A DNA stretch of 64,000 nt from Minisyncoccota bacterium (GTDB taxonomy: Bacteria; Patescibacteriota; Minisyncoccia; Phycocordibacterales; Phycocordibacteraceae): positions 4,066-68,065 of the forward strand of contig DASWNF010000010.1 in the NCBI GenBank assembly GCA_036399335.1, given 5' to 3'. A program made the position numbers and the translations under genes. The notes under the pieces were generated by a model. The model was given only the letters and a program-made list of their open reading frames with translations. It ran no database searches and was not told the DNA's origin. This document shows positions 7,057 through 34,003 of this stretch, piece by piece. Within the stretch, counting starts at the first letter, position 1. Each line of letters opens with the position of its first letter.

Positions 7057-7302
7057 ATGCGCAAGATAGAAGATTGGCTCGACGGACAATCAGAGCGCCT
7101 TCCGAATCGCAGCGCGCTCGTCGTGGCGGGAATTGTCGTACTGCTGCTCGTCAGCATCACGGCACTCTTCGATGAGCCGGGACCCTCAAAGGTGGCCCTG
7201 CATGCTTCCGAAAGGACAGCAGCCTCCGCAGCGGGCGATGTGGACGCTGCGTCCATGTCCGTCGCCGCTCCTTCCTACAACAACGAATTCACCACCCCGT
7301 GA
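7057..7302 (+). CDS. Small membrane protein (hypothetical)
   Basis: GAGGGGA SD 8 nt upstream of the ATG; one TM helix (LVVAGIVVLLLVSITALF); followed by a hairpin plus T-tract at about 7311-7350. Confidence 0.45.
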   Translation: MRKIEDWLDGQSERLPNRSALVVAGIVVLLLVSITALFDEPGPSKVALHASERTAASAAGDVDAASMSVAAPSYNNEFTTP

Positions 7303-7436
7303 CGTGGGGCGGGAGAAGGGCCTCGGCACATGCCGCGGCCCTTCATTTTTACACCCTAATTTGTTTGCCTTGACTGCCGCGCTGCCGTACCGCATCCTGC
7401 GGACGGATAGATACCAGCTACGTACGGGAGGAATGC

Positions 7437-7934
7437 ATGAGCCAAGGAAGGTATGAATCGAGAAGCCGTAACTACGTTTCCACTTCGGAACGCGGATTCC
7501 GCGGGTTCCGTTACGCCTACGCCTCAGTCGTGACGGGCCGGCGGCAGGTACGCCTGGCCGTTCTCGTCGAGGCGTACGTCGAAGACGGCGTCATCCTTGG
7601 GGGAGTTGCACGGCCGCTCACGGAGAGCGACGTGCTCGTGCTCCCGCCCGTGTACCACGGGCACCTCAGGGGTAAGGCTTACTTCACGACGCTCACGAAG
7701 GCCGTGGAGGAGGGTATCAGCACCGCCCACGGCATGTTCACCTGCCTGGACGCAATCGTCGAAGGGCCGGGCATCTATGAACTTTCGGAGCGGAAGGACG
7801 TGCCTCACGACCTGCTCGCCGCCTATGGGCTTACGTCCCGCCTCACGGTCGACGCAGTCCTGGAGCAGCTGCCTAAGCTTCTTGCCCAGATGGGGACGGA
7901 ACACTTCCGGAGCATCGAGCTGGTCGCCGCATAA
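7437..7934 (+). CDS. Hypothetical protein
   Basis: GGGAGG SD upstream of the ATG; 165-aa ORF; clean terminator downstream. Confidence 0.5.
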   Translation: MSQGRYESRSRNYVSTSERGFRGFRYAYASVVTGRRQVRLAVLVEAYVEDGVILGGVARPLTESDVLVLPPVYHGHLRGKAYFTTLTKAVEEGISTAHGMFTCLDAIVEGPGIYELSERKDVPHDLLAAYGLTSRLTVDAVLEQLPKLLAQMGTEHFRSIELVAA

Positions 7935-7955
7935 TCTCGCACATAAGAGTAACTG

Positions 7956-7986
7956 AAAGCCGCGGCACCACCCGCGGCTTTTTCTT
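7956..7986 (+). terminator. Rho-independent terminator
   Basis: AAGCCGCGG-cacca-CCCGCGGCTTTTTCTTT. Confidence 0.7.
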
Positions 7987-8050
7987 TACCCGCGCGTCTT
8001 TTGTACATATGGGGGTCAGAAGCGGATGAGCGCAGGGTATACTGGAGCCA

Positions 8051-10273
8051 ATGCTTAAGCGGCTTGAAATTGCCGGGTTTAAATCGTTCGCGCGGAAGAC
8101 CATCCTCGACTTCTCGAATGCGACGACCGCCATCGTCGGTCCGAACGGGTCGGGGAAGAGTAATGTCGCGGAGTCTTTCCGTTTCGCACTCGGCGAACAG
8201 TCCATGAAATCGATGCGCGGAAAGCGCAGCGAAGACCTTATCTGGGCGGGCTCCCACACGTCGCCGCGTTCAAACCGCGCTTCGGTCACGATCGTCTTCG
8301 ATAACACGCGCCGCATTTTCCCGCGGCTCGACTTCGACGAGGTGACAATTGAGCGCGCGGTCTTCCGCGATGGCGCGAGCGAGTACGCCATAAATGGTTC
8401 GAAGGTACGGCTCCGAGACGTCCAGGAGCTTCTTGCGTCCGCAAACATCGGCGAGACGGGGCACCATATCATTTCCCAGGGAGAGGCCGACCGCATACTC
8501 CTTTCGCATCCGCGTGAGCGCCGCGCCATGCTCGAGGACGCGCTCGGCCTCAAGGTCTTTGAGTTCAGGAAGCAGGAAGCGGAGCGGAAGCTCGAGAAGA
8601 CGGAGGAGAATGTCCGCGAGGTAGAGGGGCTCCGCCGTGAACTTGCCCCCCACATCCGCTTCCTCAAGAAGCAGGTCGAGCGCATCGAGCGCGCGGAAGG
8701 CCTCCGCCATGAACTCGTCGACGCCTCGCGCAAGTACTTCGCCATCGAGGAATTGTATATACGCACCGAACGCACGCGCGCCGAAGAGGAGCGGAAGGGG
8801 ACTGCGGTACGGCTTGCAGTCGCGTCGGGCGAGCTCACCGCCTTTGACGAGCGCACGACCAACGATGTCGAGGGTGCCAAATTCGCCGAACGGATCCGTC
8901 AGGCCGAGCGCGAGCTCGAACGTCTCACGAACGAGCGCTCCTCGCTTTCCCGCGACATGGGACGGAATGAGGGCGCGCTCGAAAGCGCAAAGAAGCGGAG
9001 CCTCCAGGTCGCGCACGACCCGTACGTAAAGGTGCCGCGCGAGGACTTCCTCACGCTTCGCGATGAAGTCGAGAAGCAGTCCGCGCTTGAGGCGCATGCG
9101 CCGGCAACGACCCTCCATGCCGCCCTCCAGGCGCTGAGGACTACGGTCCAGGCCTTCTTCGAGCGCTTCGCGCTGCCGAACGACGACTACCTCGCCGAGG
9201 AAGAGCACCAGGTGCATGTGCTTGAGAACGAGCGTACCGGGCTCCTGGCCCGCGAACGCGAGCTCGACGAATCCATCAGCAAGACACGCGTCGAGCTCGC
9301 GCACGCCCGCGAGGCGTCCATGGCGTACGACGAGACCGGACGCGAGGAGCGCCACCGCATCCTCCGGCTTGCCGAGGAGAAAGCGCGCGAAGAAGGCGCG
9401 CTTGCGCGCCTCGACGGGCGCCTGCGCGAGCTCGAACTCCTCCACGAGGAATGCGAACGCGAACGCCGCGAGACCGTCGCGCTCGCGGGCACTGCGGCGC
9501 TTTCCTTCGAGACGCTTACCGAATTGCCTGCAGAAGAGCGCCGGACGCAGGAGGAGCGCAAGCGCCAGCTCGAACGCCTCAAGATCCGTGTCGAGGAAGC
9601 CGGCGGGGGCGGGGAGGACGTAAAGAAAGAATACGAGGACTCGGTCGCGCGCGATGAGTTCCTCGCGCGCGAGCTTGAGGACCTCGCTAAGTCTGCAGAA
9701 GGGCTCCGCGGCCTTATCGGCGACCTCGAAACCGAACTCGCGAAGACCTTCTCCGAAGGCCTTGCAAAGGTGAACACTTCTTTCAGCGAGTACTTCGGCC
9801 TTATGTTCGGGGGCGGGTCGGCAAAGCTCGTGCTCGAAGAGTTCGCCGCCGTCGAAGCCGAGGACGAATTTGAAGACTCGCTTGACGATGAGCCGCAGGC
9901 AGCGCCGAAGAAGGGGAAGCCGGGTATCGAAATTTCAGTAAACCTGCCGAAGAAGCGCGTGCAGTCGCTCATGCAGCTTTCGGGCGGGGAGCGCGCGCTC
10001 ACGTCCATCGCCCTTATCTTTGCCATGAGCCAGGTGAACCCACCGCCGTTCCTTATACTCGACGAGACCGATGCCGCGCTCGACGAAGCGAACAGCCGCC
10101 GTTATGGCGACCTCATCGCCGAGCTCTCAAAGAAATCACAGCTTATCGTCATCACCCACAACCGCGAGACCATGAGCCGCGCTGGCATCCTCTACGGCGT
10201 CACGATGGGGAATGACGGCATCTCGAAGCTCCTGTCCATTAAGTTCGACGAAGCCGTTGCAGTGGCAAAATAG
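8051..10273 (+). CDS. smc: SMC-family chromosome segregation ATPase (short form, 740 aa)
   Basis: N-terminus MLKRLEIAGFKSFARKTILDF..AIVGPNGSGKSN (Walker A); C-terminal LSGGERALTSIALIFAM...LILDETDAALDEAN (signature/Walker B); long coiled-coil E/R-rich middle; much shorter than a canonical ~1180-aa SMC. Confidence 0.75.
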   Translation: MLKRLEIAGFKSFARKTILDFSNATTAIVGPNGSGKSNVAESFRFALGEQSMKSMRGKRSEDLIWAGSHTSPRSNRASVTIVFDNTRRIFPRLDFDEVTIERAVFRDGASEYAINGSKVRLRDVQELLASANIGETGHHIISQGEADRILLSHPRERRAMLEDALGLKVFEFRKQEAERKLEKTEENVREVEGLRRELAPHIRFLKKQVERIERAEGLRHELVDASRKYFAIEELYIRTERTRAEEERKGTAVRLAVASGELTAFDERTTNDVEGAKFAERIRQAERELERLTNERSSLSRDMGRNEGALESAKKRSLQVAHDPYVKVPREDFLTLRDEVEKQSALEAHAPATTLHAALQALRTTVQAFFERFALPNDDYLAEEEHQVHVLENERTGLLARERELDESISKTRVELAHAREASMAYDETGREERHRILRLAEEKAREEGALARLDGRLRELELLHEECERERRETVALAGTAALSFETLTELPAEERRTQEERKRQLERLKIRVEEAGGGGEDVKKEYEDSVARDEFLARELEDLAKSAEGLRGLIGDLETELAKTFSEGLAKVNTSFSEYFGLMFGGGSAKLVLEEFAAVEAEDEFEDSLDDEPQAAPKKGKPGIEISVNLPKKRVQSLMQLSGGERALTSIALIFAMSQVNPPPFLILDETDAALDEANSRRYGDLIAELSKKSQLIVITHNRETMSRAGILYGVTMGNDGISKLLSIKFDEAVAVAK

Positions 10274-10523
10274 GGGCTTAGGAGTAGCACCAGAAGTCGG
10301 TATGGTCCTGTTCGTCTAAGTCGGCGAGGGGATTACCGCCGAGCTGGTATGGCCCTTGGTGCCCGGGTTTCGTGCCAGGTACGTCGTCTGGATGCACATC
10401 GCGCTGGAGGTAGGCATCCGTAATAGGGCCCGGCTGCTCAATGATAGGCTCGTTCAGGTTCTGGTCTTGGTTCAGGCTCTCATCCATACCTTAATGGGGT
10501 CATAAGCACCCTTAATATTTGAT

Positions 10524-10568
10524 GAAAAAATACCCTCCCCACAAACAGGTGTGGGAGGGTGTTTCTTA
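10524..10568. terminator. Bidirectional rho-independent terminator between convergent smc and rnr
   Basis: AAAAAAT-ACCCTCCCCACA-aacag-GTGTGGGAGGGT-GTTTCTT. Confidence 0.65.
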
Positions 10569-10589
10569 AATCTCATGGGTCGGTTCCGT

Positions 10590-12566
10590 TTACTTCTCTA
10601 CGACGGCGAAGTCGAGTTCCTTTTCCGCGACACGCGCCGCAAGAAGCTTCACCCGAACCGGGTCGCCGAGCGCGTACTGCTTCTTCGTGCGCTCGCCGAC
10701 GAGCCGGTACCGCTTCTCGTCGTACGAGAAGTAGTCGTTGCCGATGTCGCGCATGCGCGCCATGCCTTCTGCCCGGGTCTCCTTCAGTTCCACGTACATG
10801 CCCCGGTCGGATACGCCCGAGATGACGGCGTCAAACTCTTCGCCGATACGGCCCTCAAGGTACTCGACCTGCTTCATCTTGATTGAGTCGCGCTCGGCTT
10901 CGGTCGCCGATACCTCGCGTTCGTTCGAGTGGAGCAGGAGCTCGTCGAAGGCGGCGAACTCCTCATCGCTCATCGGCTCGTGCTCTGCAAAGTGCTTCAC
11001 CATGCGGTGCACGAGAAGGTCGGGGTAGCGGCGGATAGGCGAGGTGAAGTGGGTGTAGAAGGAGAAGGCGAGGCCGAAATGGCCGATGTTCTTCGTGGTG
11101 TAGGCAGCTCGTGCCATTGAGCGTAGCGTCGCGACCTTGATGAGGTACTCTTCGGGTTTGCCTTTCACCTGGTCGAGGAGCGCGTTAATGTCCGCACCCT
11201 TTACCTTGCCGCCGTGGGTCTCGAGCGTATACCCGAGGACCTTCAAGAATTCGGAGAGGTTCGCGATGCGATCAGCATCGGGCACGTCGTGGGCGCGGTA
11301 GATAGACTCCATCTTCGTACCCTTCACTTTCTCAGCCAAGTACTCGGCAACGGCTTCGTTCGCGAGGAGCATGAAATCCTCGATGAGGAGCATGGTCGCG
11401 ACGCGTTCCTTGATGTGTACGTTAATTGGCTTGCCCGCTTCATCGAGCTCGATCTTCACCTCAGGAGTGTCAAATGCGATGGCACCGGCGTTCTCACGGC
11501 GCGCCCGACGCTTTTTGGAAAGCTCTTGGAGGAGCGTAAGTTCCTTCAGGAACGGGCCTTCGTTCTTATCGAGTACTTCCTGTGCGTTCTCGTAGGTAAA
11601 TCGCTTATCCGAGTGGATGACCGTCTCGCCGAACCACCGATTTACGATACCTCCCTGTGAATCGAGCTCGAATACCGCGGCGACCGCGAGGCGGTCCTCG
11701 TTCGGGTTAAGCGAACAGAGGTCGGTTGAAAGCACCTCGGGGAGCATGGGAATCGTACGGTCGACGAGATAGACGGAGGTCGCACGGTCGCGCGCCTCGT
11801 CGTCGATCGAGGTCCCGGGGCGTACGAAGAAGGATACGTCGGCGATGTGGATACCGACTTCGACATTCCCGTTCTCAAGCTCGCGTACGGAAAGGGAGTC
11901 GTCGAAGTCCTTCGCCGTGAACGGGTCGATGGTGAAGGTGGTAATGCCACGGAAGTCGCGGCGACGGCCGTCCTTGATGCCTGCCTCGGCCTCTTCCATG
12001 AGCATGCGCGTGCCGTTTTCCTCGAGCTCGCGCGCTTCGTGTACGACGCCCGGTGGGAAGTCGCTCCGGAAGCCCGAGCCGAGCGCGAGTGCGCGCATCT
12101 CGGTTTCGTGGACTCCGGCCGGACCGATTATCTCCTCGAGGGTAGCGACCGGGAAGTGCGCCTCGGGCGGCCAATCGACGAGTCGCACGGCTACCTTCTG
12201 CCCGTGCGGGAGGGACTCGCCGCGCACGAGGAAGGGTACGTACATCTTCTTCCAATCGGGGATGAGATACGTCTCGGCGGGATTCTGGTTAATCTCATTG
12301 CCGGGCACGAGGGTCCCGACGAACGTCGTGCGGCTGCGGCGGACGATCTTCACGACCTTGCCTTGGGGACGGCGCTCGCGGGTGCGCGGGTCGGGAGCCG
12401 AAAGGCCTGCCGGGTCGACCTTCACGATGTCGCCCGAAAAGGCGCCACCGAGGTTTTCGCCGGGGATGAAAAGATCATCCTTTTCAGGGTCGATCGAGAA
12501 GAATCCCTTGCCCGTGCGGGTAATGACGATGGGGCCTTCGTAGGTCCCCGGAGTTGGTGCGTTCAT
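10590..12566 (-). CDS. rnr: Ribonuclease R (RNB family 3'-5' exoribonuclease, VacB)
   Basis: N-terminal OB/cold-shock region, RNB catalytic domain, C-terminal S1; 658 aa. Confidence 0.85.
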   Translation of the reverse strand: MNAPTPGTYEGPIVITRTGKGFFSIDPEKDDLFIPGENLGGAFSGDIVKVDPAGLSAPDPRTRERRPQGKVVKIVRRSRTTFVGTLVPGNEINQNPAETYLIPDWKKMYVPFLVRGESLPHGQKVAVRLVDWPPEAHFPVATLEEIIGPAGVHETEMRALALGSGFRSDFPPGVVHEARELEENGTRMLMEEAEAGIKDGRRRDFRGITTFTIDPFTAKDFDDSLSVRELENGNVEVGIHIADVSFFVRPGTSIDDEARDRATSVYLVDRTIPMLPEVLSTDLCSLNPNEDRLAVAAVFELDSQGGIVNRWFGETVIHSDKRFTYENAQEVLDKNEGPFLKELTLLQELSKKRRARRENAGAIAFDTPEVKIELDEAGKPINVHIKERVATMLLIEDFMLLANEAVAEYLAEKVKGTKMESIYRAHDVPDADRIANLSEFLKVLGYTLETHGGKVKGADINALLDQVKGKPEEYLIKVATLRSMARAAYTTKNIGHFGLAFSFYTHFTSPIRRYPDLLVHRMVKHFAEHEPMSDEEFAAFDELLLHSNEREVSATEAERDSIKMKQVEYLEGRIGEEFDAVISGVSDRGMYVELKETRAEGMARMRDIGNDYFSYDEKRYRLVGERTKKQYALGDPVRVKLLAARVAEKELDFAVVEK

Positions 12567-26030: not shown

Positions 26031-27311
26031 ATGGCCACAAAGAAGCCTGTGAAAAAAGCTGCCCCCCAGAAGGCTGCCAAAAAGGCGCCGGTGAAAAAAG
26101 CCGCACCGAAGAAAGCCGTAAAGAAGGTGGCGAAGGCCGCACCGAAGAAAGCCGTAAAGAAGGTCGCTAAAGCTGCGCCCTCGAAGTCGGCGCGCACCAT
26201 GAACGTCGTACGTACGGCTGCAATGGGCGTCCGTGCGAAGAATGCCGCAGACCAGGCAGACAAGGCCGAGCGCCTCATCCAGAAAGGGAAGGAGCGCGGG
26301 TACATCACGTACAGCGAGATCCTCCGCGAGTTCCCGCATGTCGAAGACGACATCAACTTCCTCGATGACCTCTACGGGCGCTTCACGACGGCCGGCATCG
26401 ACATCCTCGAAGGCGGCATGCTCGAGGACCAGGCCGACCAGTACCTCGCGACCCGCAACATCAAGGGCCGTGAATCGTCAGGCTACGATTCCATCCAGAT
26501 CTACCTCCGCGAGATCGGCCAGTACCCGCTTTTGACCGCAAACGAGGAGAAGGAACTCGCCAAGCGCATCGAGTCAGGCGATGAGGAAGCCCGTAACATC
26601 CTCGCGCGCTCGAACCTCCGCCTCGTCGTATCCATCGCCAAGAAGTACGTAGGCCGCTCGCCGGACCTCACCCTCCTCGACCTCATCCAGGAAGGTAACC
26701 TCGGCCTCTTCAAAGCCGTCGATAAGTTCGACTGGAAGAAGGGTTATAAGTTCTCGACGTATGCGACGTGGTGGATCCGCCAGGCTATCACCCGCGCGCT
26801 TGCCGACCAGTCACGCACCATCCGCATCCCCGTGCACATGGTCGAGACCATCGCCAAGTACAAGCAGGTCTCGCGCCGCCTCGCGCAGGCGCTCGGCCGC
26901 GACCCGCAGCCCGAGGAGATTGCCGTCGAGATGAATGTCGAAGTCGAGAAGATCTACCAGATCGAGAAGATCAACCAGGACACCCTCTCGCTCGAGAACC
27001 CTATCGGTTCGGACGACGACGAGCGCTCGACCCTGGGCGATTTCATCGCCGACGACAAGATCCCAAGCCCCGTCCAGGAATCATCCGAACGCATCCTCAC
27101 CGAGCAGGTCCGCGACATCCTCGACGACCTCTCACCGAAGGAGCGCAAGATCCTCGAGATGCGCCACGGTCTCCTCGATGGCGTGTACCACACGCTCGAA
27201 GAGGTAGGGAAGGAGTTCGGCGTCACCCGCGAGCGTATCCGCCAGATCGAGGCAAAGGCCCTCGAGAAGATCCGGACGCACGAGAAGTCCCGTCGGCTGA
27301 AGAGCTACTAG
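26031..27311 (+). CDS. rpoD: RNA polymerase sigma-70 factor RpoD with a Lys/Ala-rich repetitive N-terminus
   Basis: Regions 1.2, 2, 3 and 4 are recognisable ([59 protein letters not shown]). The N-terminal 50 aa contains [17 protein letters not shown] repeats, encoded by a 36-nt tandem DNA repeat at about 26100-26164. Confidence 0.9.
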
Positions 27312-27340
27312 CAAAAAGGCCCCTAAGGGGCCTTTTTGCT
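27310..27340. terminator. Bidirectional rho-independent terminator after rpoD
   Basis: AAAAAGGCCCC-taa-GGGGCCTTTTTGCTTTT. Confidence 0.75.
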
Positions 27341-27442
27341 TTTAATCATAATAAAGACGCACTAAGTGTAGAAAGTATGTATGACTCGTTAATGCGCCAA
27401 AAGTATACTTGGCTGCAAGATTACCTATAGCTTGATATAGTT

Positions 27443-28276
27443 ATGCAAATGGCAACACCTGCAGAGGCGCGCAAAATTTTGCAGAAAGTAGCATATAAGC
27501 CTTATTTCCAGCAGGACCACTTTGTGCTCTATAACGGGGACTCTATTGATCTGTTAAATCAGCTACCTGAAGAGTCTATAGATATGATATTTGCGGATCC
27601 ACCCTATAATCTTTCTAATGGCGGGTTTAGCGTACAGGCTGGCAGGCGTGTCAGCGTAAATAAGGGCGACTGGGATAAGAGTAAGGGCTTACAGGATGAT
27701 TACGAGTTTCATTATCGTTGGATGGAAGCTGCGCGCAGAGTATTAAAACCCCATGGCACGTTATGGGTAAGCGGCACGTACCATTCTATTTATCAGTGCG
27801 GCTACGCATTACAGTCGCTCGACTTCCATATTCTTAACGACATCTCGTGGTTTAAGCCGAATGCTTCACCTAACTTAAGCGGTAGATACTTTACAGCGAG
27901 TCATGAGACTCTTATCTGGGCCCGTAAAGAGAAAAAGGCGAAGCACATATTCAACTACAAGCTTATGAAGGAGGGTCATTGGCCCGAAGACGCGCTAAAA
28001 AAACCAGGTCTACAGATGCGCTCCGTATGGTCGATGGGCACCCCTAAACCTTCCGAGAAAAAGCACGGAAAGCATCCAACACAGAAACCTTTAGATCTGT
28101 TGCAAAGAGTAGTTCTTGCAAGCACTAACAAAGGAGATATTGTGCTCGACCCATTTACCGGGAGCTCAACGACGGGACTTGCTGCCGCCTTACACGAGAG
28201 GAAGTTCATTGGTATTGATTTGGAGAAGGACTACTTAGAGCTTTCAAAAAAACGGTATCTCGATATCGCCCAATAA
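27443..28276 (+). CDS. Beta-class DNA methyltransferase (N6-adenine or N4-cytosine; N6_N4_Mtase family)
   Basis: Motif IV FADPPYNL near the N-terminus and motif I VLDPFTGSSTTGLAA near the C-terminus (the beta-class order IV...I). Confidence 0.85.
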   Translation: MQMATPAEARKILQKVAYKPYFQQDHFVLYNGDSIDLLNQLPEESIDMIFADPPYNLSNGGFSVQAGRRVSVNKGDWDKSKGLQDDYEFHYRWMEAARRVLKPHGTLWVSGTYHSIYQCGYALQSLDFHILNDISWFKPNASPNLSGRYFTASHETLIWARKEKKAKHIFNYKLMKEGHWPEDALKKPGLQMRSVWSMGTPKPSEKKHGKHPTQKPLDLLQRVVLASTNKGDIVLDPFTGSSTTGLAAALHERKFIGIDLEKDYLELSKKRYLDIAQ

Positions 28277-28278
28277 CC

Positions 28279-29160
28279 ATGAATCTAGAAAGCAGAGATC
28301 GTTATGCGTCGTCCGAGGACTTCCGGGATGACTTCATTGGGACCCTAACTCCAGGAATAATTCCTCGCGCCAACTTCATTCAATGGAAGACCATAGAAGA
28401 AAAGCGGAAAAAGTATGAACGGTACTTCGAGTTCTTTCGTGAACTACCACACTCTTCTGATACCGAACTAAGGAATCATTTAAGAGATTCTTTATTTGCG
28501 GATGACGATCCATTACCTCTAGTAACAGCTGCATTTCAGCTGCTCGGCCACACGGGAAAGACCTATGCCTCTGTAGAGGACTTCGTCGACTTTAAGAAGC
28601 TTGGGAAGGATGAAAAGACTGTGGAATCGATGGAATACGTTGCGAACCTGCTACTGGCCTTAGGAATTAAAAATGTCTTGGAGTGTAATTTAGATGACTA
28701 CTTTCTTGGCGTGCAGATCGGGCTTGAATCTCATCGGAGGAAGAATGTTGGGGGCACAGCCTTTGTAGCATCCGTACGTACTGAGTTGGAGAAGATAATT
28801 AAGAGTTTGAACTTCAAGGGCCAACCGTGGGAACTCAGCGAAGAAAAGAAAATTATATACATCGACGGAGTTACGTCTAAGAAGGTAGACTTTCTTCTGC
28901 AGAAGGATGGTAAAAAAATTGGTGTTGAGGTTAATTTCTATACGGCTCCTGGTTCCAAACCAACAGAAATTAAGAGAAGCTATGGTCAAGTTAATAGAGA
29001 CCTAGATGCCGTTGGCGCTTCCTTAATCTGGATAACCGATGGGGCAGGCTATTTAAGCATGAAGAATAGTCTAAAAGAAGCGCGTGATATTCACCAAAAT
29101 ATATATAACTTCCAAATGCTAAAGACATATTTAGAGCCCGATCTGGAACTACTGCCCTAG
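28279..29160 (+). CDS. Putative Type II restriction endonuclease (cognate partner of the upstream methyltransferase)
   Basis: Starts 2 nt after the MTase stop; 293 aa, low GC; possible PD-(D/E)xK-like segment IYIDGVTSKKVDFLL...IGVEVNF; no family assigned. Confidence 0.4.
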   Translation: MNLESRDRYASSEDFRDDFIGTLTPGIIPRANFIQWKTIEEKRKKYERYFEFFRELPHSSDTELRNHLRDSLFADDDPLPLVTAAFQLLGHTGKTYASVEDFVDFKKLGKDEKTVESMEYVANLLLALGIKNVLECNLDDYFLGVQIGLESHRRKNVGGTAFVASVRTELEKIIKSLNFKGQPWELSEEKKIIYIDGVTSKKVDFLLQKDGKKIGVEVNFYTAPGSKPTEIKRSYGQVNRDLDAVGASLIWITDGAGYLSMKNSLKEARDIHQNIYNFQMLKTYLEPDLELLP

Positions 29161-29241
29161 ATGAAATAAAGCTGCAGAAAATTGTGGGTGTGGGGAAGAG
29201 AAAAGGTTAGGAAAAGATGTGGTGCGGGATAGGGTAAGGGC

Positions 29242-29748
29242 ATGAATACGCTCATAATCCTTGCTGCTGTCCTCGTCGTTCTTTTCGTTATCGGCTTTGT
29301 TTTCAAGCTTCTTTCTGAGACGGAAGTTACGGGGATTACCGCTAAACCGAAATACAACTATACGAAGCGCCGGTATCTCATGACACGCGCTGAACACGAC
29401 TGCTATAAGCTCCTTGCCCGGGGGCTTGGCGACCAATACTTCGTATTTGCCCAGGTACATCTTCCGGAGATAGTGAGCGAGAAAGTCCCGGGGCAGAAAT
29501 GGCGGCCGGCACGGGCGCACATAGACCGGAAGTCGGTGGACTTCGTCATTTGCGATAAGGAAGGGATCTCGCCCTTGCTCGCTATTGAGCTCGATGACTG
29601 GAGCCATAACCGGGAGGACCGCCAGGAGCGGGATAGGGAGGTCGAGCGCATTCTCGCCCAGGCCGGGCTGCCGCTTTTGCGGATTACTGATATGGAAGAC
29701 CTTGTTAATCGTGTACAGGCTAAACTAGGCGCAAGCGAACATGCATAA
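29242..29748 (+). CDS. DUF2726-family protein (restriction-endonuclease-like fold) with an N-terminal TM anchor
   Basis: N-terminal TM helix; LMTRAEHDCYKLL...YFVFAQVHL...HIDRKSVDFVICDKEGISPLLAIELDDWSHN...RQERDREVERILAQAGLPLLRI matches the remembered DUF2726 consensus; GGGTAAGGG SD. Confidence 0.6.
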   Translation: MNTLIILAAVLVVLFVIGFVFKLLSETEVTGITAKPKYNYTKRRYLMTRAEHDCYKLLARGLGDQYFVFAQVHLPEIVSEKVPGQKWRPARAHIDRKSVDFVICDKEGISPLLAIELDDWSHNREDRQERDREVERILAQAGLPLLRITDMEDLVNRVQAKLGASEHA

Positions 29749-30586
29749 TCCAGATTACGACCCTTACCGGGATTTTATCGAAAAGCTGCAGAAAGATATG
29801 CAGCCTTATATCGAGGCACAGGCACGTTTACTTGAGGCATATGCGCCGACCTTCGAGGCGATGAACCATCTTCTTGTGCGCCTGGGACCGGTGCTGCAGA
29901 AGCAGATAATGCATGTGGAGTGGGTAGTGAGAGCGCAGCAGCGAAAGGAGGAGGAGAAGGTTGCGATGCTAGAGAGCGGCTGGTGGTACACCCCTTCCTT
30001 GCTCACTATTGATTTTAGGATTACCGACAACGCAGTTGACCAATATGGGCAGGGTGACAAGGAAGCTATCGGACGCATGGTCGAGACTGAGTATCAGCGT
30101 GATGGCTGTGCACTACTTGAACAAGCCGTGCTTGCTTGGGGAAAGAATGCCTTGTTTGCTCCATGGCTCCCTCATGCAAAGGCCGCCTTAGCGGCTCACC
30201 GGCGCAAAGAGTATGAGCTAAGCGTGCCAGTGTTCCTGATCATTTCCGAAGGGGTTGCCACGGCCTTTTGTAAGGCAAATGGTGTTTATGACGACCAGGA
30301 TATATCGAGTGCAGGAAAGAAGATAAAGAAGGCCTTGGACATTGGCTACGACTCCGGGCATGACTTGGCCTTTTCGGCGGAGTTCCTGAAGAGCGCCATG
30401 AATACTACGATTTATAAGAATACTGACGCACTCAAAGAAAGGCTAAATCACGACATTCTAAATCGCCACGCTGTGCTTCATGGTGTTAAGCCAGGCTACG
30501 GAACGCCTAGGTCTTCGCTTCAAGCGTTCATGCTCGCAGACTTCTTGAGCGAACTTGCGCAACCTCCAGAGAAAGATAGGAAATAG
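29741..30586 (+). CDS. Hypothetical protein with a C-terminal HEPN-like Rx4H motif (putative RNase effector)
   Basis: ATG overlaps the DUF2726 stop (ATGCATAA), indicating translational coupling; C-terminal LNRHAVLHG resembles the HEPN R-x4-H (Abi-type R[N]xxAH) motif; 281 aa. Confidence 0.4.
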   Translation: MHNPDYDPYRDFIEKLQKDMQPYIEAQARLLEAYAPTFEAMNHLLVRLGPVLQKQIMHVEWVVRAQQRKEEEKVAMLESGWWYTPSLLTIDFRITDNAVDQYGQGDKEAIGRMVETEYQRDGCALLEQAVLAWGKNALFAPWLPHAKAALAAHRRKEYELSVPVFLIISEGVATAFCKANGVYDDQDISSAGKKIKKALDIGYDSGHDLAFSAEFLKSAMNTTIYKNTDALKERLNHDILNRHAVLHGVKPGYGTPRSSLQAFMLADFLSELAQPPEKDRK

Positions 30587-30672
30587 AGGAAGATAAAATT
30601 TTCCTGCAGAAAATACTGCAAAATTAACGTAAATACCGTGAGCATTGACGTACGCATTGGTAACCTAAAAGT

Positions 30673-31653
30673 ATGTCATTAACTGTAAATGGTGCGTTCG
30701 CCACTTTCCATAAGGACTTTGTAAACCTGGATCCAGAGAGAACGAAGGTTGCCCGGGGCAGCAGAGACTGGTTATTTGATCAGTTGATAGGCCTACCACA
30801 AAAAGTAGACACATTCCCGCATTTGTATGCCGATAAGCATATCTATTATGGCTCGTTTGCGAGAAATACGAAGATACGCGAGCTCGATGATATAGACCTG
30901 ATTTTGGCTTTTCTTGCTCAAGGTACTAAATACCAAATTATTGTACCCGGCAAGGAATACGTGCTTACGCCGCCCGAGAGCGCGACGCATCTCCGAAAGC
31001 TTTGTCATGATGACGGTACCTTGAATTCAATAAAAGTAGTGAATCTGCTAGTCGCGTCCCTAGACAAGATTGAGCATTATAAGAAGTCAGAAAAGCATCG
31101 CAATCAAGAAGCAGCAACTCTCCAGCTTAGTTCGCATGAGTGGAAGTTCGATATAGTCCCTGCCTTCTTCGCTGATATAGACCACTACGTTATTCCTGAC
31201 GGGAAAGGGAACTGGAAGCCTACAGATCCACGAGTTGACCAAGAGAAGGTACAGCGGGTTAACGGGAAGCATGGAGGCAAGATCCTGCAGCTTATTCGGA
31301 CGTTAAAGTTTTGGAATAGGCGGGGACTTATGACTACTGCGCCCTCCTACCTATTTGAAAACATGATTCTTGATTACTTCGACAACCAAGCAGAGGTTCA
31401 CGATTATATTGACTTTAACTTGCGCGATTTTTGGGGTTACCTAATTACTGGCATTTACTACGATGTTATGGACCCGAAGAATTTGCAAGGCAACTTAAAT
31501 ACGCTGAGCCATTCAGAACGGGAAAGCATTTCTGCGAAGGCGGCAGATGCCTATGCTCGTGCAGCTGAGGCAATCAAGCTCGAGGTCACTGATGGCGACA
31601 TGGAAGCATCGATTCGGAAGTGGAGAGAGATCTTTGGGACGAACTTTATATGA
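30673..31653 (+). CDS. SMODS-type polymerase-beta superfamily nucleotidyltransferase (CD-NTase-like second-messenger synthase)
   Basis: YGSFARNTKIRELDDIDLILAF (GS...DxD) plus the third catalytic Asp in HEWKFDIVPAF (hxhDhhPa); 326 aa; low GC. Confidence 0.7.
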   Translation: MSLTVNGAFATFHKDFVNLDPERTKVARGSRDWLFDQLIGLPQKVDTFPHLYADKHIYYGSFARNTKIRELDDIDLILAFLAQGTKYQIIVPGKEYVLTPPESATHLRKLCHDDGTLNSIKVVNLLVASLDKIEHYKKSEKHRNQEAATLQLSSHEWKFDIVPAFFADIDHYVIPDGKGNWKPTDPRVDQEKVQRVNGKHGGKILQLIRTLKFWNRRGLMTTAPSYLFENMILDYFDNQAEVHDYIDFNLRDFWGYLITGIYYDVMDPKNLQGNLNTLSHSERESISAKAADAYARAAEAIKLEVTDGDMEASIRKWREIFGTNFI

Positions 31654-32546
31654 ACGACATACCTGAAAAGCAAAATCAGCCTAACCAGCTCGCCCTACTG
31701 TCAGCGCAAAGGCGCCTGTATTCGGCGTCAAAGAAACTTTTCTTCTGGCGGACAATCATTGCCTTATGTGTGGCAACGGTTGGCTCCTACCTCGTTTCGA
31801 ATATTACTTATTTCGGTTCATATCTCGCGTTAGCTATCGTAAGTTATATCGTTATAGATATTTATGTACTGAAACGGAAAGAATCTGAACACAGGGAAAC
31901 CGCTGCAGCAGTACAAGAACTTTTTGATACACGGCTCTATGAACTTCCATGGAATGATTTTGTGGCCAAGAAGAAACCAGATGACGAGCTGATTGCTCTC
32001 TGGGCCAGACCTCTTGAGCTCGATAACCAGGCGCTTAAGGATTGGTACCCACGTGAAGTCGGAAAAGCAGACTTGGATTTTGCCCGCTTTGTATGCCAAC
32101 GCACAAACTTATGGTGGGACTCCACGTTGAGACAGAATTACGTTCGATTCCTGATTTTTATACTAATTGCCACCGGAGTAGTCTTGGCATTATTGAGTAT
32201 CTATTTTGAGCTAAGTGTAGCAGCAGCGCTCGTCCAGCTTCTTCCATTGCTACCGCTCGCGAATTTGCTTCAGGAGCAAGTAAGGGACCACTGGGAGACT
32301 TACTCGCAGAACATATCCTTGAAAGGACAAATAGATGAGCAGATTGAAAAGATGGTACGCCGTGAAGTGTTAGAAACACCGTCAGTCGTGTCACGTATAT
32401 TTCAAGACGAGATATTTAGGCATCGGCGGAAATCCTCTCTTATTCTCGACTATTTCTACTGGAAATTCAGGCCGAAACAAGAGGAACAGATGCAGTTCAG
32501 TGCAGAATCGAAAGTCACAGAATACTTGAATGCAAAGCCGGCATAG
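31650..32546 (+). CDS. SLATT-like multi-TM effector (4 predicted TM helices) partnered with the SMODS nucleotidyltransferase
   Basis: ATGA overlap with the SMODS stop (31650-31653); TM pairs IIALCVATVGSYLVSNI/FGSYLALAIVSYIVIDIYVL and FLIFILIATGVVLALLSIYF/LVQLLPLLPLANLL; soluble C-terminal tail. Confidence 0.6.
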   Translation: MNDIPEKQNQPNQLALLSAQRRLYSASKKLFFWRTIIALCVATVGSYLVSNITYFGSYLALAIVSYIVIDIYVLKRKESEHRETAAAVQELFDTRLYELPWNDFVAKKKPDDELIALWARPLELDNQALKDWYPREVGKADLDFARFVCQRTNLWWDSTLRQNYVRFLIFILIATGVVLALLSIYFELSVAAALVQLLPLLPLANLLQEQVRDHWETYSQNISLKGQIDEQIEKMVRREVLETPSVVSRIFQDEIFRHRRKSSLILDYFYWKFRPKQEEQMQFSAESKVTEYLNAKPA

Positions 32547-32562
32547 GTGCTAAGCTTCAAGC

Positions 32563-33414
32563 ATGAACCTCATACGAACGTACGCGCTTCCGGCAGTCAT
32601 CATCCTAGCCTTTATCCTGGTTGCTTTCTGGATGAGCCTCATGATATGGGGCTCTTGGTACGACGAGTGGAGCGGGTATAACGCGACGTGGGCCATTAGT
32701 GACGGGTACTGCAACATCGCCGTCATACCTATCCGGGGCGAAATTTATTCGTATGCGAGCGAGGACGAGCGGTACGCATTTCCCGTCACGGTCGGGGACG
32801 ATATCCTCGGGCTGATCGACCACATTGAGTCGGAGCCGGGCATTGACGGCGTCATGCTCCAGATTGATTCTCCCGGCGGGGAAATGACGCCGGCCACGGA
32901 GATCGTGGACCGGCTTAAGGCGCTCGACCTTCCCGTCGCCGCGTATATCCGCGAGATGGGTGCTTCTGCCGCCTATTACATTGCGACAGGCGCGGACACG
33001 ATCATCGCGACCCCGCTTTCAGACGTCGGCAGCATCGGCGTGACCATGTCGTACCTCGACCAGTCACGCCAGAACGAGGACGCGGGGCTCGAGTTCATCT
33101 CGCTTTCGTCTGGAAAGTACAAGGACTATGGGAACCCCAACCGGCCCCTAACTGAGGAGGAACGTGCGCTGCTTGAGCGCGACCTAAAGATATACCACGA
33201 CGTATTCGTGGCCAACATCGCCGGCAACCGCGGCCTGCCCGTTGAGGAGATTGCCGCGCTCGCCGACGGCTCCTCGATGCCCGCCAGTCTTGCGCTTGAA
33301 AAGAAACTTATCGACTCGGTAGGGAACAGGGATACGGTCCGCGAGTGGTTTGCCAGTACGCTTATCATGGACACGGAGAATGTCGTCTTGTGCCGTCCCG
33401 CGCAGGTGTATTAA
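32563..33414 (+). CDS. sppA: Signal peptide peptidase SppA (S49 family, ClpP/crotonase fold)
   Basis: N-terminal TM anchor; QIDSPGGEM...GASAAYYIA...IGV motifs. Confidence 0.75.
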   Translation: MNLIRTYALPAVIILAFILVAFWMSLMIWGSWYDEWSGYNATWAISDGYCNIAVIPIRGEIYSYASEDERYAFPVTVGDDILGLIDHIESEPGIDGVMLQIDSPGGEMTPATEIVDRLKALDLPVAAYIREMGASAAYYIATGADTIIATPLSDVGSIGVTMSYLDQSRQNEDAGLEFISLSSGKYKDYGNPNRPLTEEERALLERDLKIYHDVFVANIAGNRGLPVEEIAALADGSSMPASLALEKKLIDSVGNRDTVREWFASTLIMDTENVVLCRPAQVY

Positions 33415-33436: not shown

Positions 33437-34003
33437 ATGGACTACGAAATACGGGAAAGCGCGCGGGCACGGTACGTGCGGGTGTCGGTGTACCCGGACG
33501 GAAGGGTAATCGTGACGCGCCCGCGCGGAGTGTCGCTCCTTGCCATTACTAAGTTCGTGGAAGAACGGCGCAAGTGGATCCTGGAGGCGAAGGAAGAAGC
33601 CCGGAAAAAGGAGGAAGCGCGCAAGCGCCGGGAAGAGAAGTCGCCGAGTACCTTGCTCCCGCGGCCGCGCCGCGGGAGCAAGGTACATACTGAGGCGGTA
33701 AACCGTGCGCGCCTTCTCGTACACGCGCACCTCGAATCCCTGAATGCGCACTATGGTTTTACATATGGGCGCGTATCCATAAAGAGCCAGAAGTCTCTCT
33801 GGGGGAGTTGTTCGCATAAAGGGAACCTCAATTTCAATTATAAGATCGCGTATCTCCCCGAAGACGTAGCCGAGTACCTCGTCGCCCATGAACTGTGCCA
33901 CTTGAAAGAGATGAACCACTCACCTCGTTTCTGGGCGCTCGTGGGAACACAGGTGCCTGAGTATGCCCGCCTTCGGGCGCGGCTTCGCAGGTACCGGATA
34001 TAA
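33437..34003 (+). CDS. YgjP-like (DUF45/M48-type) zinc metallohydrolase
   Basis: HELCHLKEMNHSPRFW HExxH-type motif at the C-terminus; typical DUF45 N-terminus; ATG at 33437. Confidence 0.7.
   Translation: MDYEIRESARARYVRVSVYPDGRVIVTRPRGVSLLAITKFVEERRKWILEAKEEARKKEEARKRREEKSPSTLLPRPRRGSKVHTEAVNRARLLVHAHLESLNAHYGFTYGRVSIKSQKSLWGSCSHKGNLNFNYKIAYLPEDVAEYLVAHELCHLKEMNHSPRFWALVGTQVPEYARLRARLRRYRI

Follow-up and report, generated by a model that had tools for sequence, protein, structure and literature searches.

A low-GC mosaic of predicted defence genes behind the rpoD terminator of a Kaiserbacteria-like bacterium, probably at a lineage-specific hotspot

The closest described counterparts of the locus reported here are the core defence hotspots cDHS1 and cDHS2 of Pseudomonas aeruginosa (Johnson et al. 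2023, PMC10250203) and the hotspots of Escherichia coli (Hochhauser et al. 2023, PMC10121019), fixed sites bounded by core genes at which differing defence systems are found from genome to genome, with a GC content below that of the backbone and without assignment to an obvious mobile-element class. Their cargo has been proposed to be exchanged through the conserved flanks, for the Pseudomonas hotspots in a scar-free process. The same features recur in a low-GC stretch (positions 27344-32546) between rpoD and sppA in a 64-kb window (the whole piece of DNA analysed) whose sequence points to a Kaiserbacteria-like Paceibacterota as host. Six genes lie in this stretch: a restriction-modification (R-M) pair, a DUF2726 gene, a gene for a 281-amino-acid (aa) protein with an Rx4H motif, and a pair resembling a cyclic-oligonucleotide-based anti-phage signalling system (CBASS). 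It is judged likely that the stretch is a mosaic in a lineage-specific defence hotspot 3′ of the rpoD terminator, with cargo turning over through the flanks. In the P. aeruginosa and E. coli examples the comparison is between strains of one species; here the pattern extends across species or genera of an uncultured lineage of the candidate phyla radiation (CPR). The cargo is also small (0-8 kb), an essential gene, rpoD, provides the left flank with its terminator, and a short junction motif together with the resident DUF2726 gene subdivides the locus. The kind of hotspot is already familiar; here it is met in a little-studied CPR lineage. Patescibacteria (CPR) are bacteria of tiny genomes in which CRISPR is mostly absent and defence is thought to depend on R-M systems; little is known of how immunity is acquired and exchanged in the group.

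Composition and borders of the low-GC stretch

The six genes and the flanks that delimit them are as follows:

26031-27311, + strand: rpoD (sigma-70), with Sigma70 domains r1.1 to r4; conserved left flank of the proposed hotspot.
27310-27343, + strand: intrinsic terminator of rpoD, a 15-bp perfect stem (hairpin 27310-27340) followed by a T-run, found in the sequence by inverted-repeat search.
27443-28276, + strand: type II beta-class N6A/N4C DNA methyltransferase (MTase); PF01555 2e-59, PADLOC MTase_II 1e-98.
28279-29160, + strand: DpnII/MboI-family type II restriction endonuclease (REase); PF04556 1e-39 over profile positions 3-273 of 278, PADLOC REase_II 5e-32.
29242-29748, + strand: predicted membrane-anchored DUF2726 nuclease-fold protein, 168 aa; PF10881 1e-29, MTES_1575 5e-6, N-terminal transmembrane helix.
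29741-30586, + strand: 281-aa all-alpha protein with the motif LNRHxVLHG (Rx4H); candidate HEPN-like effector.
30673-31653, + strand: CBASS CD-NTase, a predicted cyclic oligonucleotide synthase; PADLOC Cyclase PDLC00802 5e-125, SMODS 4e-13.
31650-32546, + strand: predicted CBASS effector S_4TM, a membrane protein with four transmembrane segments (4TM); PF18159 6e-71 over its full length, PADLOC 4TM effector 3e-77.
32563-33414, + strand: sppA (S49 peptidase), the right flank; PF01343 2e-32, native in composition (GC 0.587, GC at third codon positions (GC3) 0.757).

The sequence-only reading had singled out an AT-richer island of about 5.2 kb starting directly past the rpoD terminator and ending 16 nt before the sppA start codon, and both its composition and its outer limits are borne out. 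The GC content of 27344-32546 is 46.4% versus 60.9% for the remainder of the window, which places it 14 standard deviations (sd) below the background of 242 other 5.2-kb windows (mean 61.0%, sd 1.0, minimum 59.0%). Along the sequence, sliding GC values of 0.60-0.66 over rpoBC, dnaG and rpoD give way to 0.42-0.47 from about 27250, rise to 0.53-0.56 between about 29250 and 30250, fall to 0.44-0.48 up to about 32750 and reach 0.57-0.62 at sppA. Coding properties deviate as well: GC3 is 0.45-0.62 in the six genes versus 0.744 ± 0.078 in the 37 other open reading frames (ORFs), and the synonymous-codon distance from the pooled background is 0.181-0.228 versus a mean of 0.103 (sd 0.036, maximum 0.185), five of the six genes giving the largest values in the window and the sixth lying slightly below the background maximum. 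The low-GC stretch is genuine horizontally acquired DNA. Its composition is not uniform: the R-M pair (0.44) and the CBASS pair (0.45) enclose a middle segment, 29158-30572, of 0.52 overall, a value found both for the DUF2726 block and for the insert described below. Nor does an older acquisition, also proposed at first, fit well, since deficits of 15 points in GC and 25-30 points in GC3 in the R-M and CBASS genes disfavour long residence.

Vertical inheritance, with the low GC arising from gene-specific constraints, could at best account for the DUF2726 gene, whose GC3 lies near the lower native edge (0.615, z = -1.7; GC 0.536) and which is conserved in this neighbourhood. The R-M, CBASS and Rx4H genes, by contrast, have GC3 values 2.3-3.7 sd below background, have their nearest homologues scattered across unrelated phyla and phages, and are absent from the site in all 80 relatives compared, which comprise the 80 top-ranking rpoD-anchored loci among GTDB species representatives, all of them Patescibacteria (Kaiserbacteria, Paceibacterota, Parcubacteria). 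Inheritance as native genes is already contradicted for five of the six genes and tenable only for DUF2726; as an explanation of the whole stretch it is hardly credible.

An abrupt change of composition within a metagenome assembly could also arise from an assembly or binning artefact, in which low-GC DNA of another organism would have been mis-joined to a Paceibacterota contig, and a Logan contig does break within the stretch, at window position 32053. That contig nevertheless crosses the right junction, and three further assemblies, a JGI metagenome contig (3300034138, Ga0334955_000146), an ENA MEGAHIT contig and a contig of 71 kb from an NCBI Paceibacterota metagenome-assembled genome (MAG), carry the identical sequence (100%) across both junctions. 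Identity across assemblies makes a chimeric join unlikely. The junctions are moreover gene-tight, the internal DUF2726 block is orthologous to one that also lies 3′ of rpoD in a relative (L125), and further relatives repeat the same pattern at the same site. A mis-joined contig is therefore considered very improbable.

On the left, the rpoD stop codon occupies 27309-27311, the drop in GC starts directly past the terminator, and an equivalent hairpin lies immediately 3′ of the rpoD stop in relatives. On the right, a 16-nt spacer separates the S_4TM stop codon (32544-32546) from the sppA ATG (32563). The reported lack of mobility functions and border repeats also stands. No recombinase or transposase domain was found in the six proteins or in called genes within 10 kb on either side, no tRNA or transfer-messenger RNA (tmRNA) gene in the 64-kb window (ARAGORN) or in 25 related loci, and no match to an Rfam family in the window or in seven loci. 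Comparison of the outer borders (27312-27442 versus 32540-32570) revealed no direct repeat, the best ungapped score of 5 being that expected by chance, and a blastn search of the stretch against PLSDB plasmids and INPHARED phages returned only one match, to an unannotated phage contig (162 nt, 71%). The intergenic spaces within the stretch measure only 99, 81, 86 and 16 nt (coding density about 95%) and therefore leave no room for a decayed mobility gene. A classical integrative island would be expected to show an integrase, a tRNA/tmRNA target and flanking repeats, all of which are missing here, along with an atypical base composition, which is present.

The putatively resident DUF2726 block, the single-gene insert and the junction motif

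Three further features, located through the relative L125, define the internal structure of the stretch:

29158-29221, + strand: non-coding junction block upstream of DUF2726, homologous to L125 and containing motif copy 1, ATGAAATAAAGCTGCAGAA (29161-29179).
29729-30571, + strand: single-gene insert of about 843 nt (± 2) in the 3′ end of DUF2726, delimited by alignment to L125.
30593-30611, + strand: junction motif copy 2, ATAAAATTTTCCTGCAGAA, closing the DUF2726 block; 18 of 19 positions identical to L125 4480-4498 (0 of 2000 shuffles).

The L125 contig starts within the final 78 nt of rpoD (84.6% nucleotide identity, 25 of 25 aa). Its rpoD is followed by 3.8 kb of cargo with a GC content of 0.38-0.44, comprising three small helix-turn-helix (HTH) genes and genes for SLFN_AlbA_2, MazG-like and Schlafen-type helicase proteins, and then by a DUF2726 gene of native GC3 (0.69), native-GC genes and an S8 subtilase gene. 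Upstream of DUF2726 the two loci share the junction block (29158-29221 versus L125 3881-3944; 83% identity over 64 nt, blastn E 7e-12, 0 of 2000 shuffles), and in both the stop codon of the last gene of the cargo marks the start of the homology. Since L125 fills the interval between rpoD and this block with unrelated genes, the R-M pair can be said to occupy a slot bounded by the rpoD terminator and the junction block.

The DUF2726 protein, whose family has been assigned a PD-(D/E)XK/Vsr-like nuclease fold (PMC3424549, PMC3710099), is 75% identical to its orthologue at the same position in L125 and 47-55% identical to that of L020, where the gene lies in this neighbourhood, 1 kb past rpoD. Homologues of about 165-180 aa are common in Paceibacterota; in L126 and L128 the gene adjoins S8 subtilase, S49 peptidase and UvrD genes, and in the Niyogibacteria contig L130 it lies 1.6 kb upstream of dnaG-rpoD. 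On these comparisons DUF2726 appears to be a resident gene of the neighbourhood around which cargo has been acquired.

The alignment of the window and L125 DUF2726 genes runs to ...ACTAG (window 29728). Past this point L125 continues with AAACATAG TAAATA... and, 30 nt further, ATGAAATTTTCCTGCAGAA, whereas in the window the same sequence (AAAGATAGGAAATA...ATAAAATTTTCCTGCAGAA) resumes only at 30572 (0 of 2000 shuffles), so that the approximately 843 nt between these points represent an insert. It supplies the final six codons of the DUF2726 gene, giving the protein the tail LGASEHA* in place of LET*. Conversely, the 281-aa ORF leaves the insert, its final four codons and stop (KDRK*) being encoded by resident DNA, and its homologues are without the PPEKDRK tail. 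No repeat or recombinase was found beside the insert. The sequence-only reading had arranged the six genes in three functional pairs, and the DUF2726 and 281-aa genes were considered as a conserved two-gene system; this was rejected, as DUF2726 is missing from the neighbourhood of the family's members at about 37 other loci and the 281-aa gene is itself an insert.

Two 24-nt imperfect repeats (29159-29182 and 30591-30614; P about 0.005) bracket the middle segment and are kept in L125. The motif ATGAAR-N5-CTGCAGAA is found in the window at 29161, with a one-mismatch copy at 30593; in L125 at 84 (within the rpoD terminator), 3884 (at the end of the cargo) and 4480 (directly 3′ of DUF2726), a weaker copy at 1965 separating two cargo modules; and in L132 at 6494, where it stands between a type I R-M/KAP-NTPase block and a further DUF2726 block. 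By chance, the 1.3 Mb of loci examined would contain about 0.02 exact copies, and the copies are restricted to module boundaries near DUF2726 in these three genomes. For the 8-mer CTGCAGAA alone, 1.55 occurrences would be expected in the whole window; there are nine, six of which lie within 28895-30611. The motif may serve, or have served, in recombination, may be a terminator or regulatory relic specific to the lineage, or may begin a tiny ORF; it is regarded, like the insertion of the Rx4H ORF, as a modestly novel detail.

Small, promoter-less, co-oriented units of one or two genes with a short sequence recurring just after the unit stops recall integrons and Xer-dif arrays. By analogy, an unlinked site-specific recombinase acting in trans might insert modules singly at ATGAAR-N5-CTGCAGAA. 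Exact copies occur only at module boundaries in L125, the window and L132, the 3.8-kb cargo of L125 is bracketed by copies sharing 14 of 14 specified positions (17 of 20 bases overall), and the Rx4H insert is a minimal single-ORF unit. Yet the window region and the 10 kb around it encode no recombinase, the outer borders of the stretch are devoid of the motif, the junctions of the Rx4H insert lie 13 nt and about 20 nt from any motif copy, and the copies share no hairpin. Integron attC sites are imperfect palindromes and dif sites consist of half-sites; the 19-nt motif shows neither arrangement and stands at some boundaries only. Furthermore, three genomes alone carry it, and it could equally be a terminator or regulatory relic or a small-ORF start. 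Insertion by such a recombinase is unlikely. More doubtful still is the wider proposal that the motif marks an integrase-unlinked cassette exchange in Kaiserbacteria-like CPR which loads defence genes between rpoD and DUF2726, with the Rx4H protein as a new single-gene anti-phage effector.

Taken together, these comparisons indicate that the stretch holds at least three separate acquisitions around the resident DUF2726 gene, with junctions located at nucleotide level for two of the units. The earlier picture of one inserted island is difficult to maintain. Such an en-bloc acquisition, in which 5.2 kb from one donor entered at once and the integrase and att sites were later lost, would explain the contiguity of the low-GC block, its co-oriented and tightly packed genes and the common GC content of the R-M and CBASS pairs (0.44-0.45), and a CBASS of the same type does lie near a serine recombinase in the Parcubacteria MAG L090. 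It does not explain the different composition of the middle segment, the DUF2726 block and non-coding junctions present also in L125 beside unrelated cargo, the recurrence of the DUF2726 gene in this neighbourhood in other Paceibacterota or the separate insertion of the Rx4H gene, and there is neither space for a decayed integrase nor a border repeat. A single acquisition is accordingly held to be improbable.

The site behind rpoD in related genomes

The order rpoC-dnaG-rpoD is kept in all 80 related loci, whose rpoD proteins are 66-93% identical to that of the window (rpoBC/rpoD DNA about 81-85% for the nearest). With a 188-aa HExxH protein (p188) and a UvrD/PD-(D/E)XK helicase as right anchors, the interval between rpoD and the next of these measures as little as 61 bp (L014) and as much as 8.4 kb. 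It is very short (61-165 bp) in L010, L014 and L062 and longer in L036 (0.5 kb), L011 (1.7 kb), L050 (2.2 kb), L008 (4.8 kb), L024 (5.6 kb), the window (6.1 kb), L017 (7.9 kb) and L006 (8.1 kb). The sites of L010, L014, L062 and L036 are empty. A GC dip of at least 0.09 directly past rpoD was found in L006, L008, L017, L024, L050, L064 and the short L020, and low-GC cargo occupies this position in L125 also.

The cargo differs from locus to locus. It comprises genes for DndB-like, Dam-type MTase, RadC, 472-aa MutH/Sau3AI-like nuclease, C5-MTase, Vsr and NYN proteins in L006; a 905-aa MTase fusion in L008; an Eco57I-like fragment and RhuM/Fic in L017; a ResIII helicase in L024, followed by sppA-p188-uvrD as on the right flank of the window; a Tsp45I REase and an HTH-MTase in L050; and DUF2806, NYN and type III mod and res in L064. 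The right anchor is the DUF2726 block in L125 and L020 and p188/uvrD in L006, L008, L011, L017, L036 and L050. In all-against-all BLASTP comparisons the cargo proteins were mutually unrelated except for generic MTase similarity, and none of the rpoD-anchored relatives has a nucleotide match to the stretch. R-M, CBASS, type III, type IIG, Tsp45I, Sau3AI-like/Vsr, DndB-like, NYN, Schlafen-like and Fic/RhuM functions are thus represented among the predicted defence genes across loci, and the conjecture that the site is a hotspot of defence gene turnover gains support from this comparison.

Several observations concern the site and its surroundings in their own right. Eight of the related contigs end within 1 kb past rpoD, versus 2.8 per kb (P about 0.009, 80 loci), a suggestive excess that is consistent with strain heterogeneity breaking assemblies. 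Near-identical, GC-rich DNA of about 130 nt (...GTCGTTACGGGTCCCTCGCGGGCCCGTTCGTCG...), without an Rfam match, lies directly past rpoD in L015 (11108-11240) and L064 (11165-11300), and a different conserved promoter-like block in L016 and L028. The first gene past rpoD in L008 (11203-12207) encodes a 334-aa zinc-ribbon protein with a sub-threshold match to the Cas12f/TnpB TNB domain (E 3e-5), which may be a TnpB-like remnant at the hotspot. In L007, a second variable interval (7150-11789, GC 0.33-0.41) lies between p188 and uvrD and encodes a CAP12/Pycsar-type TIR protein, a DUF5655/PD-(D/E)XK protein and a fusion of N6_Mtase with a specificity domain. The p188 gene of the window (33437-34003) encodes an HExxH-type motif (HELCHLKEMNHSPRFW) and matched no NCBIfam model; its adjacency to uvrD is kept in about a dozen relatives, and a YgjP-like protein adjoins HsdR in L132.

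A lineage-specific hotspot, the account favoured here, would have been filled as follows. The R-M cassette would occupy the slot between the rpoD terminator and the junction block, followed by the resident membrane-anchored DUF2726 gene; a single-ORF Rx4H cassette would have been inserted into the last codons of DUF2726, and the two-gene CBASS would sit between the DUF2726 block and sppA. No gene of the locus would move itself. Instead, cargo would be gained or replaced after DNA uptake by recombination through conserved flanks, rpoD on one side and the junction block/DUF2726, sppA, p188 or uvrD on the other, and the motif at module boundaries may help the exchange. CPR Saccharibacteria are naturally competent (PMC10187176), and competence genes as well as R-M-bearing islands have been reported in Patescibacteria (PMC12455944).

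A number of points weigh against this account. The nearest relatives are only about 81-85% identical and none is of the same species, so that gain, loss and the order of events, like homologous recombination through the flanks, are inferred; a metagenome scan with sppA for closer relatives returned a single distant partial match. All sequences are metagenome assemblies, and the four concordant ones may share one sample. The left border of the stretch has no convincing motif copy (best match 11 of 19 at 27350, not significant), and motif-guided insertion of the R-M pair is therefore not demonstrated. DUF2726, with a GC3 of 0.62 versus 0.74 for the host, still falls below host composition. In most loci examined it has defence genes beside it, so that, instead of being a resident anchor, it may be mobile defence cargo in its own right. 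Finally, the defence roles of the R-M, CBASS and Rx4H genes are predictions from family or motif, the specificity assigned to the R-M pair being a guess from its family and the RNase role of the Rx4H protein a guess from its motif.

Predicted functions of the cargo and their significance

DpnII/MboI/LlaDCHI-type systems are restriction-modification systems directed against GATC. The R-M pair resembles them in that a DpnII-family REase adjoins a beta-class N6_N4 MTase, as with DpnA/M2.DpnII, and in that the host backbone is depleted of GATC; it differs in having one MTase only, without a Dam-like DpnM partner. The MTase carries a DPPY motif (FADPPYNL) and an FxGxG-type motif near its C terminus (gene GC 0.458, GC3 0.496), and its CcrM-like match is below cut-off; the REase gene (GC 0.430) follows after a 2-nt gap. 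Among the 16 four-base palindromes, GATC is the most depleted in the backbone (all of the window but 27344-32546), with an observed/expected ratio of 0.62. By family membership, the pair would methylate and cleave a short palindrome, probably GATC, with cleavage of unmethylated DNA. The GATC ratio is lower still in some relatives (0.21 in L018, 0.38 in L015). Non-homologous systems that are both probably GATC-directed, the DpnII-type pair of the window and the Dam, MutH/Sau3AI-like, C5-MTase and Vsr set of L006, are found at the same site.

The CD-NTase and S_4TM genes form a predicted type I CBASS. Residues G60, S61, D73, D75 and D160 of the CD-NTase are invariant in 20 homologues, and more than 1300 homologues are spread across many phyla, with a best non-self identity of 65%. 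In likeness to type I CBASS with a 4TM effector, the pair is a two-gene overlapping operon with an intact Pol-beta-type GS/DxD/D signature and a full-length S_4TM match, and no genes for Cap2/Cap3, HORMA or TRIP13 proteins lie beside it, the neighbours being the Rx4H gene and sppA. It differs in scoring below the NCBIfam equivalog cut-off (108 versus 200 bits) and in its host, an ultra-small episymbiont-type bacterium. The proposed SMODS/SLATT identity holds in its first half; for the effector, the only Pfam match is PF18159 (S_4TM) and the only PADLOC matches are '4TM' effectors, not SLATT. The effector most likely starts at ATG 31650 rather than at GTG 31620, the mechanical ORF start adopted previously: the former produces a 4-nt ATGA overlap with the CD-NTase stop codon and is used by the 298-aa JGI and ENA gene calls. 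Such ATGA overlaps are typical of coupled CBASS genes. On infection, the CD-NTase would make a cyclic oligonucleotide that opens the 4TM effector, killing the cell before phage release. The nomenclature of CBASS with a 4TM effector reportedly goes back to Burroughs et al. in 2015, and the classification of CBASS is said to be that of Millman et al. in 2020. The closest named CPR homologue of the pair, at 63% identity, is in L090 (JBEBJP010000003.1), where it is part of another defence cluster; a large serine recombinase, an AAA_13 ATPase, a HATPase_c protein and an N6_N4 MTase are encoded alongside it.

The family of the 281-aa protein is large. A word-indexed search with eight hits had made it appear very rare, a view overturned by an exhaustive profile search of 1.84 billion representatives, which yielded 4100 members at E<=1e-3 and 2401 at E<=1e-10. 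R242, H247 and G248 of the Rx4H motif are invariant in a 114-sequence alignment, in which a second block, AHxRxEYxLSxPV, is nearly invariant; we know of no HEPN counterpart of this block. The AlphaFold model from this alignment is all-helical (predicted local distance difference test score (pLDDT) 95, predicted template-modelling score (pTM) 0.84), an earlier AF2 model from eight sequences having reached a pLDDT of 71 and given an uninformative Foldseek search.

The all-alpha fold, the invariant Rx4H near the C terminus and the occurrence of members in phages, integrative and conjugative element (ICE)-like elements and defence neighbourhoods recall the HEPN abortive-infection and toxin RNases (Anantharaman et al. 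2013, PMC3710099). In contrast to these, none of the 114 members matches a HEPN Pfam model. There was no Pfam match of any kind at E<=0.01 for the 114, or at E<=10 for eight members, nor a PADLOC or NCBIfam match for the 281-aa protein; the profile retrieved only coiled-coil noise from PDB sequences, and Foldseek found no significant match in the PDB, the resemblance to the archaeal HEPN protein 1wol being weak (TMt 0.54, E 6.2). Of the label 'DUF2726/HEPN-like' given at first, the DUF2726 half is confirmed and the HEPN-like half is not. Plausibly the protein is a divergent HEPN-type RNase, a candidate rather than an established member of HEPN, and as such it would act alone. Phage homologues include an uncharacterised siphovirus protein (E 2e-4), phrog_28904 (E 3e-6) and proteins on 29 IMG/VR contigs. 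Neighbours of other members vary (a helicase with MTES_1575 and DUF2779, a KAP NTPase, a PRTRC/ThiF/JAB cluster, UvrD, housekeeping genes), and the protein is read here as a stand-alone accessory gene of mobile elements.

As to expression, one further feature was noted:

27381-27409, + strand: promoter-like site ATGACT-17-TATACT before the MTase gene; consensus scan, 9 of 12 matches, weak.

In the consensus scan, promoter-like sites are no more numerous in the region than by chance. The six genes and sppA share one orientation with gaps of at most 86 nt and are probably read as one or few transcripts. Since the genes are co-oriented and the 16-nt spacer between S_4TM and sppA contains no terminator-like site, sppA is probably co-transcribed with them by read-through.

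If the favoured account is correct, a Paceibacterota clade keeps a dedicated, mobility-gene-free landing site directly past the terminator of an essential gene, at which about 5 kb of foreign DNA, comprising a predicted R-M system, a predicted CBASS and a candidate effector, has gathered around one resident gene, with module boundaries resolvable to a few nucleotides, including a clean single-ORF insertion. The analysis also flags a large Rx4H family with an invariant motif and a confident all-alpha model for which Pfam, PADLOC and NCBIfam hold no family model. Mining of CPR metagenomes anchored on rpoD would offer a cheap route to new defence genes of this lineage.

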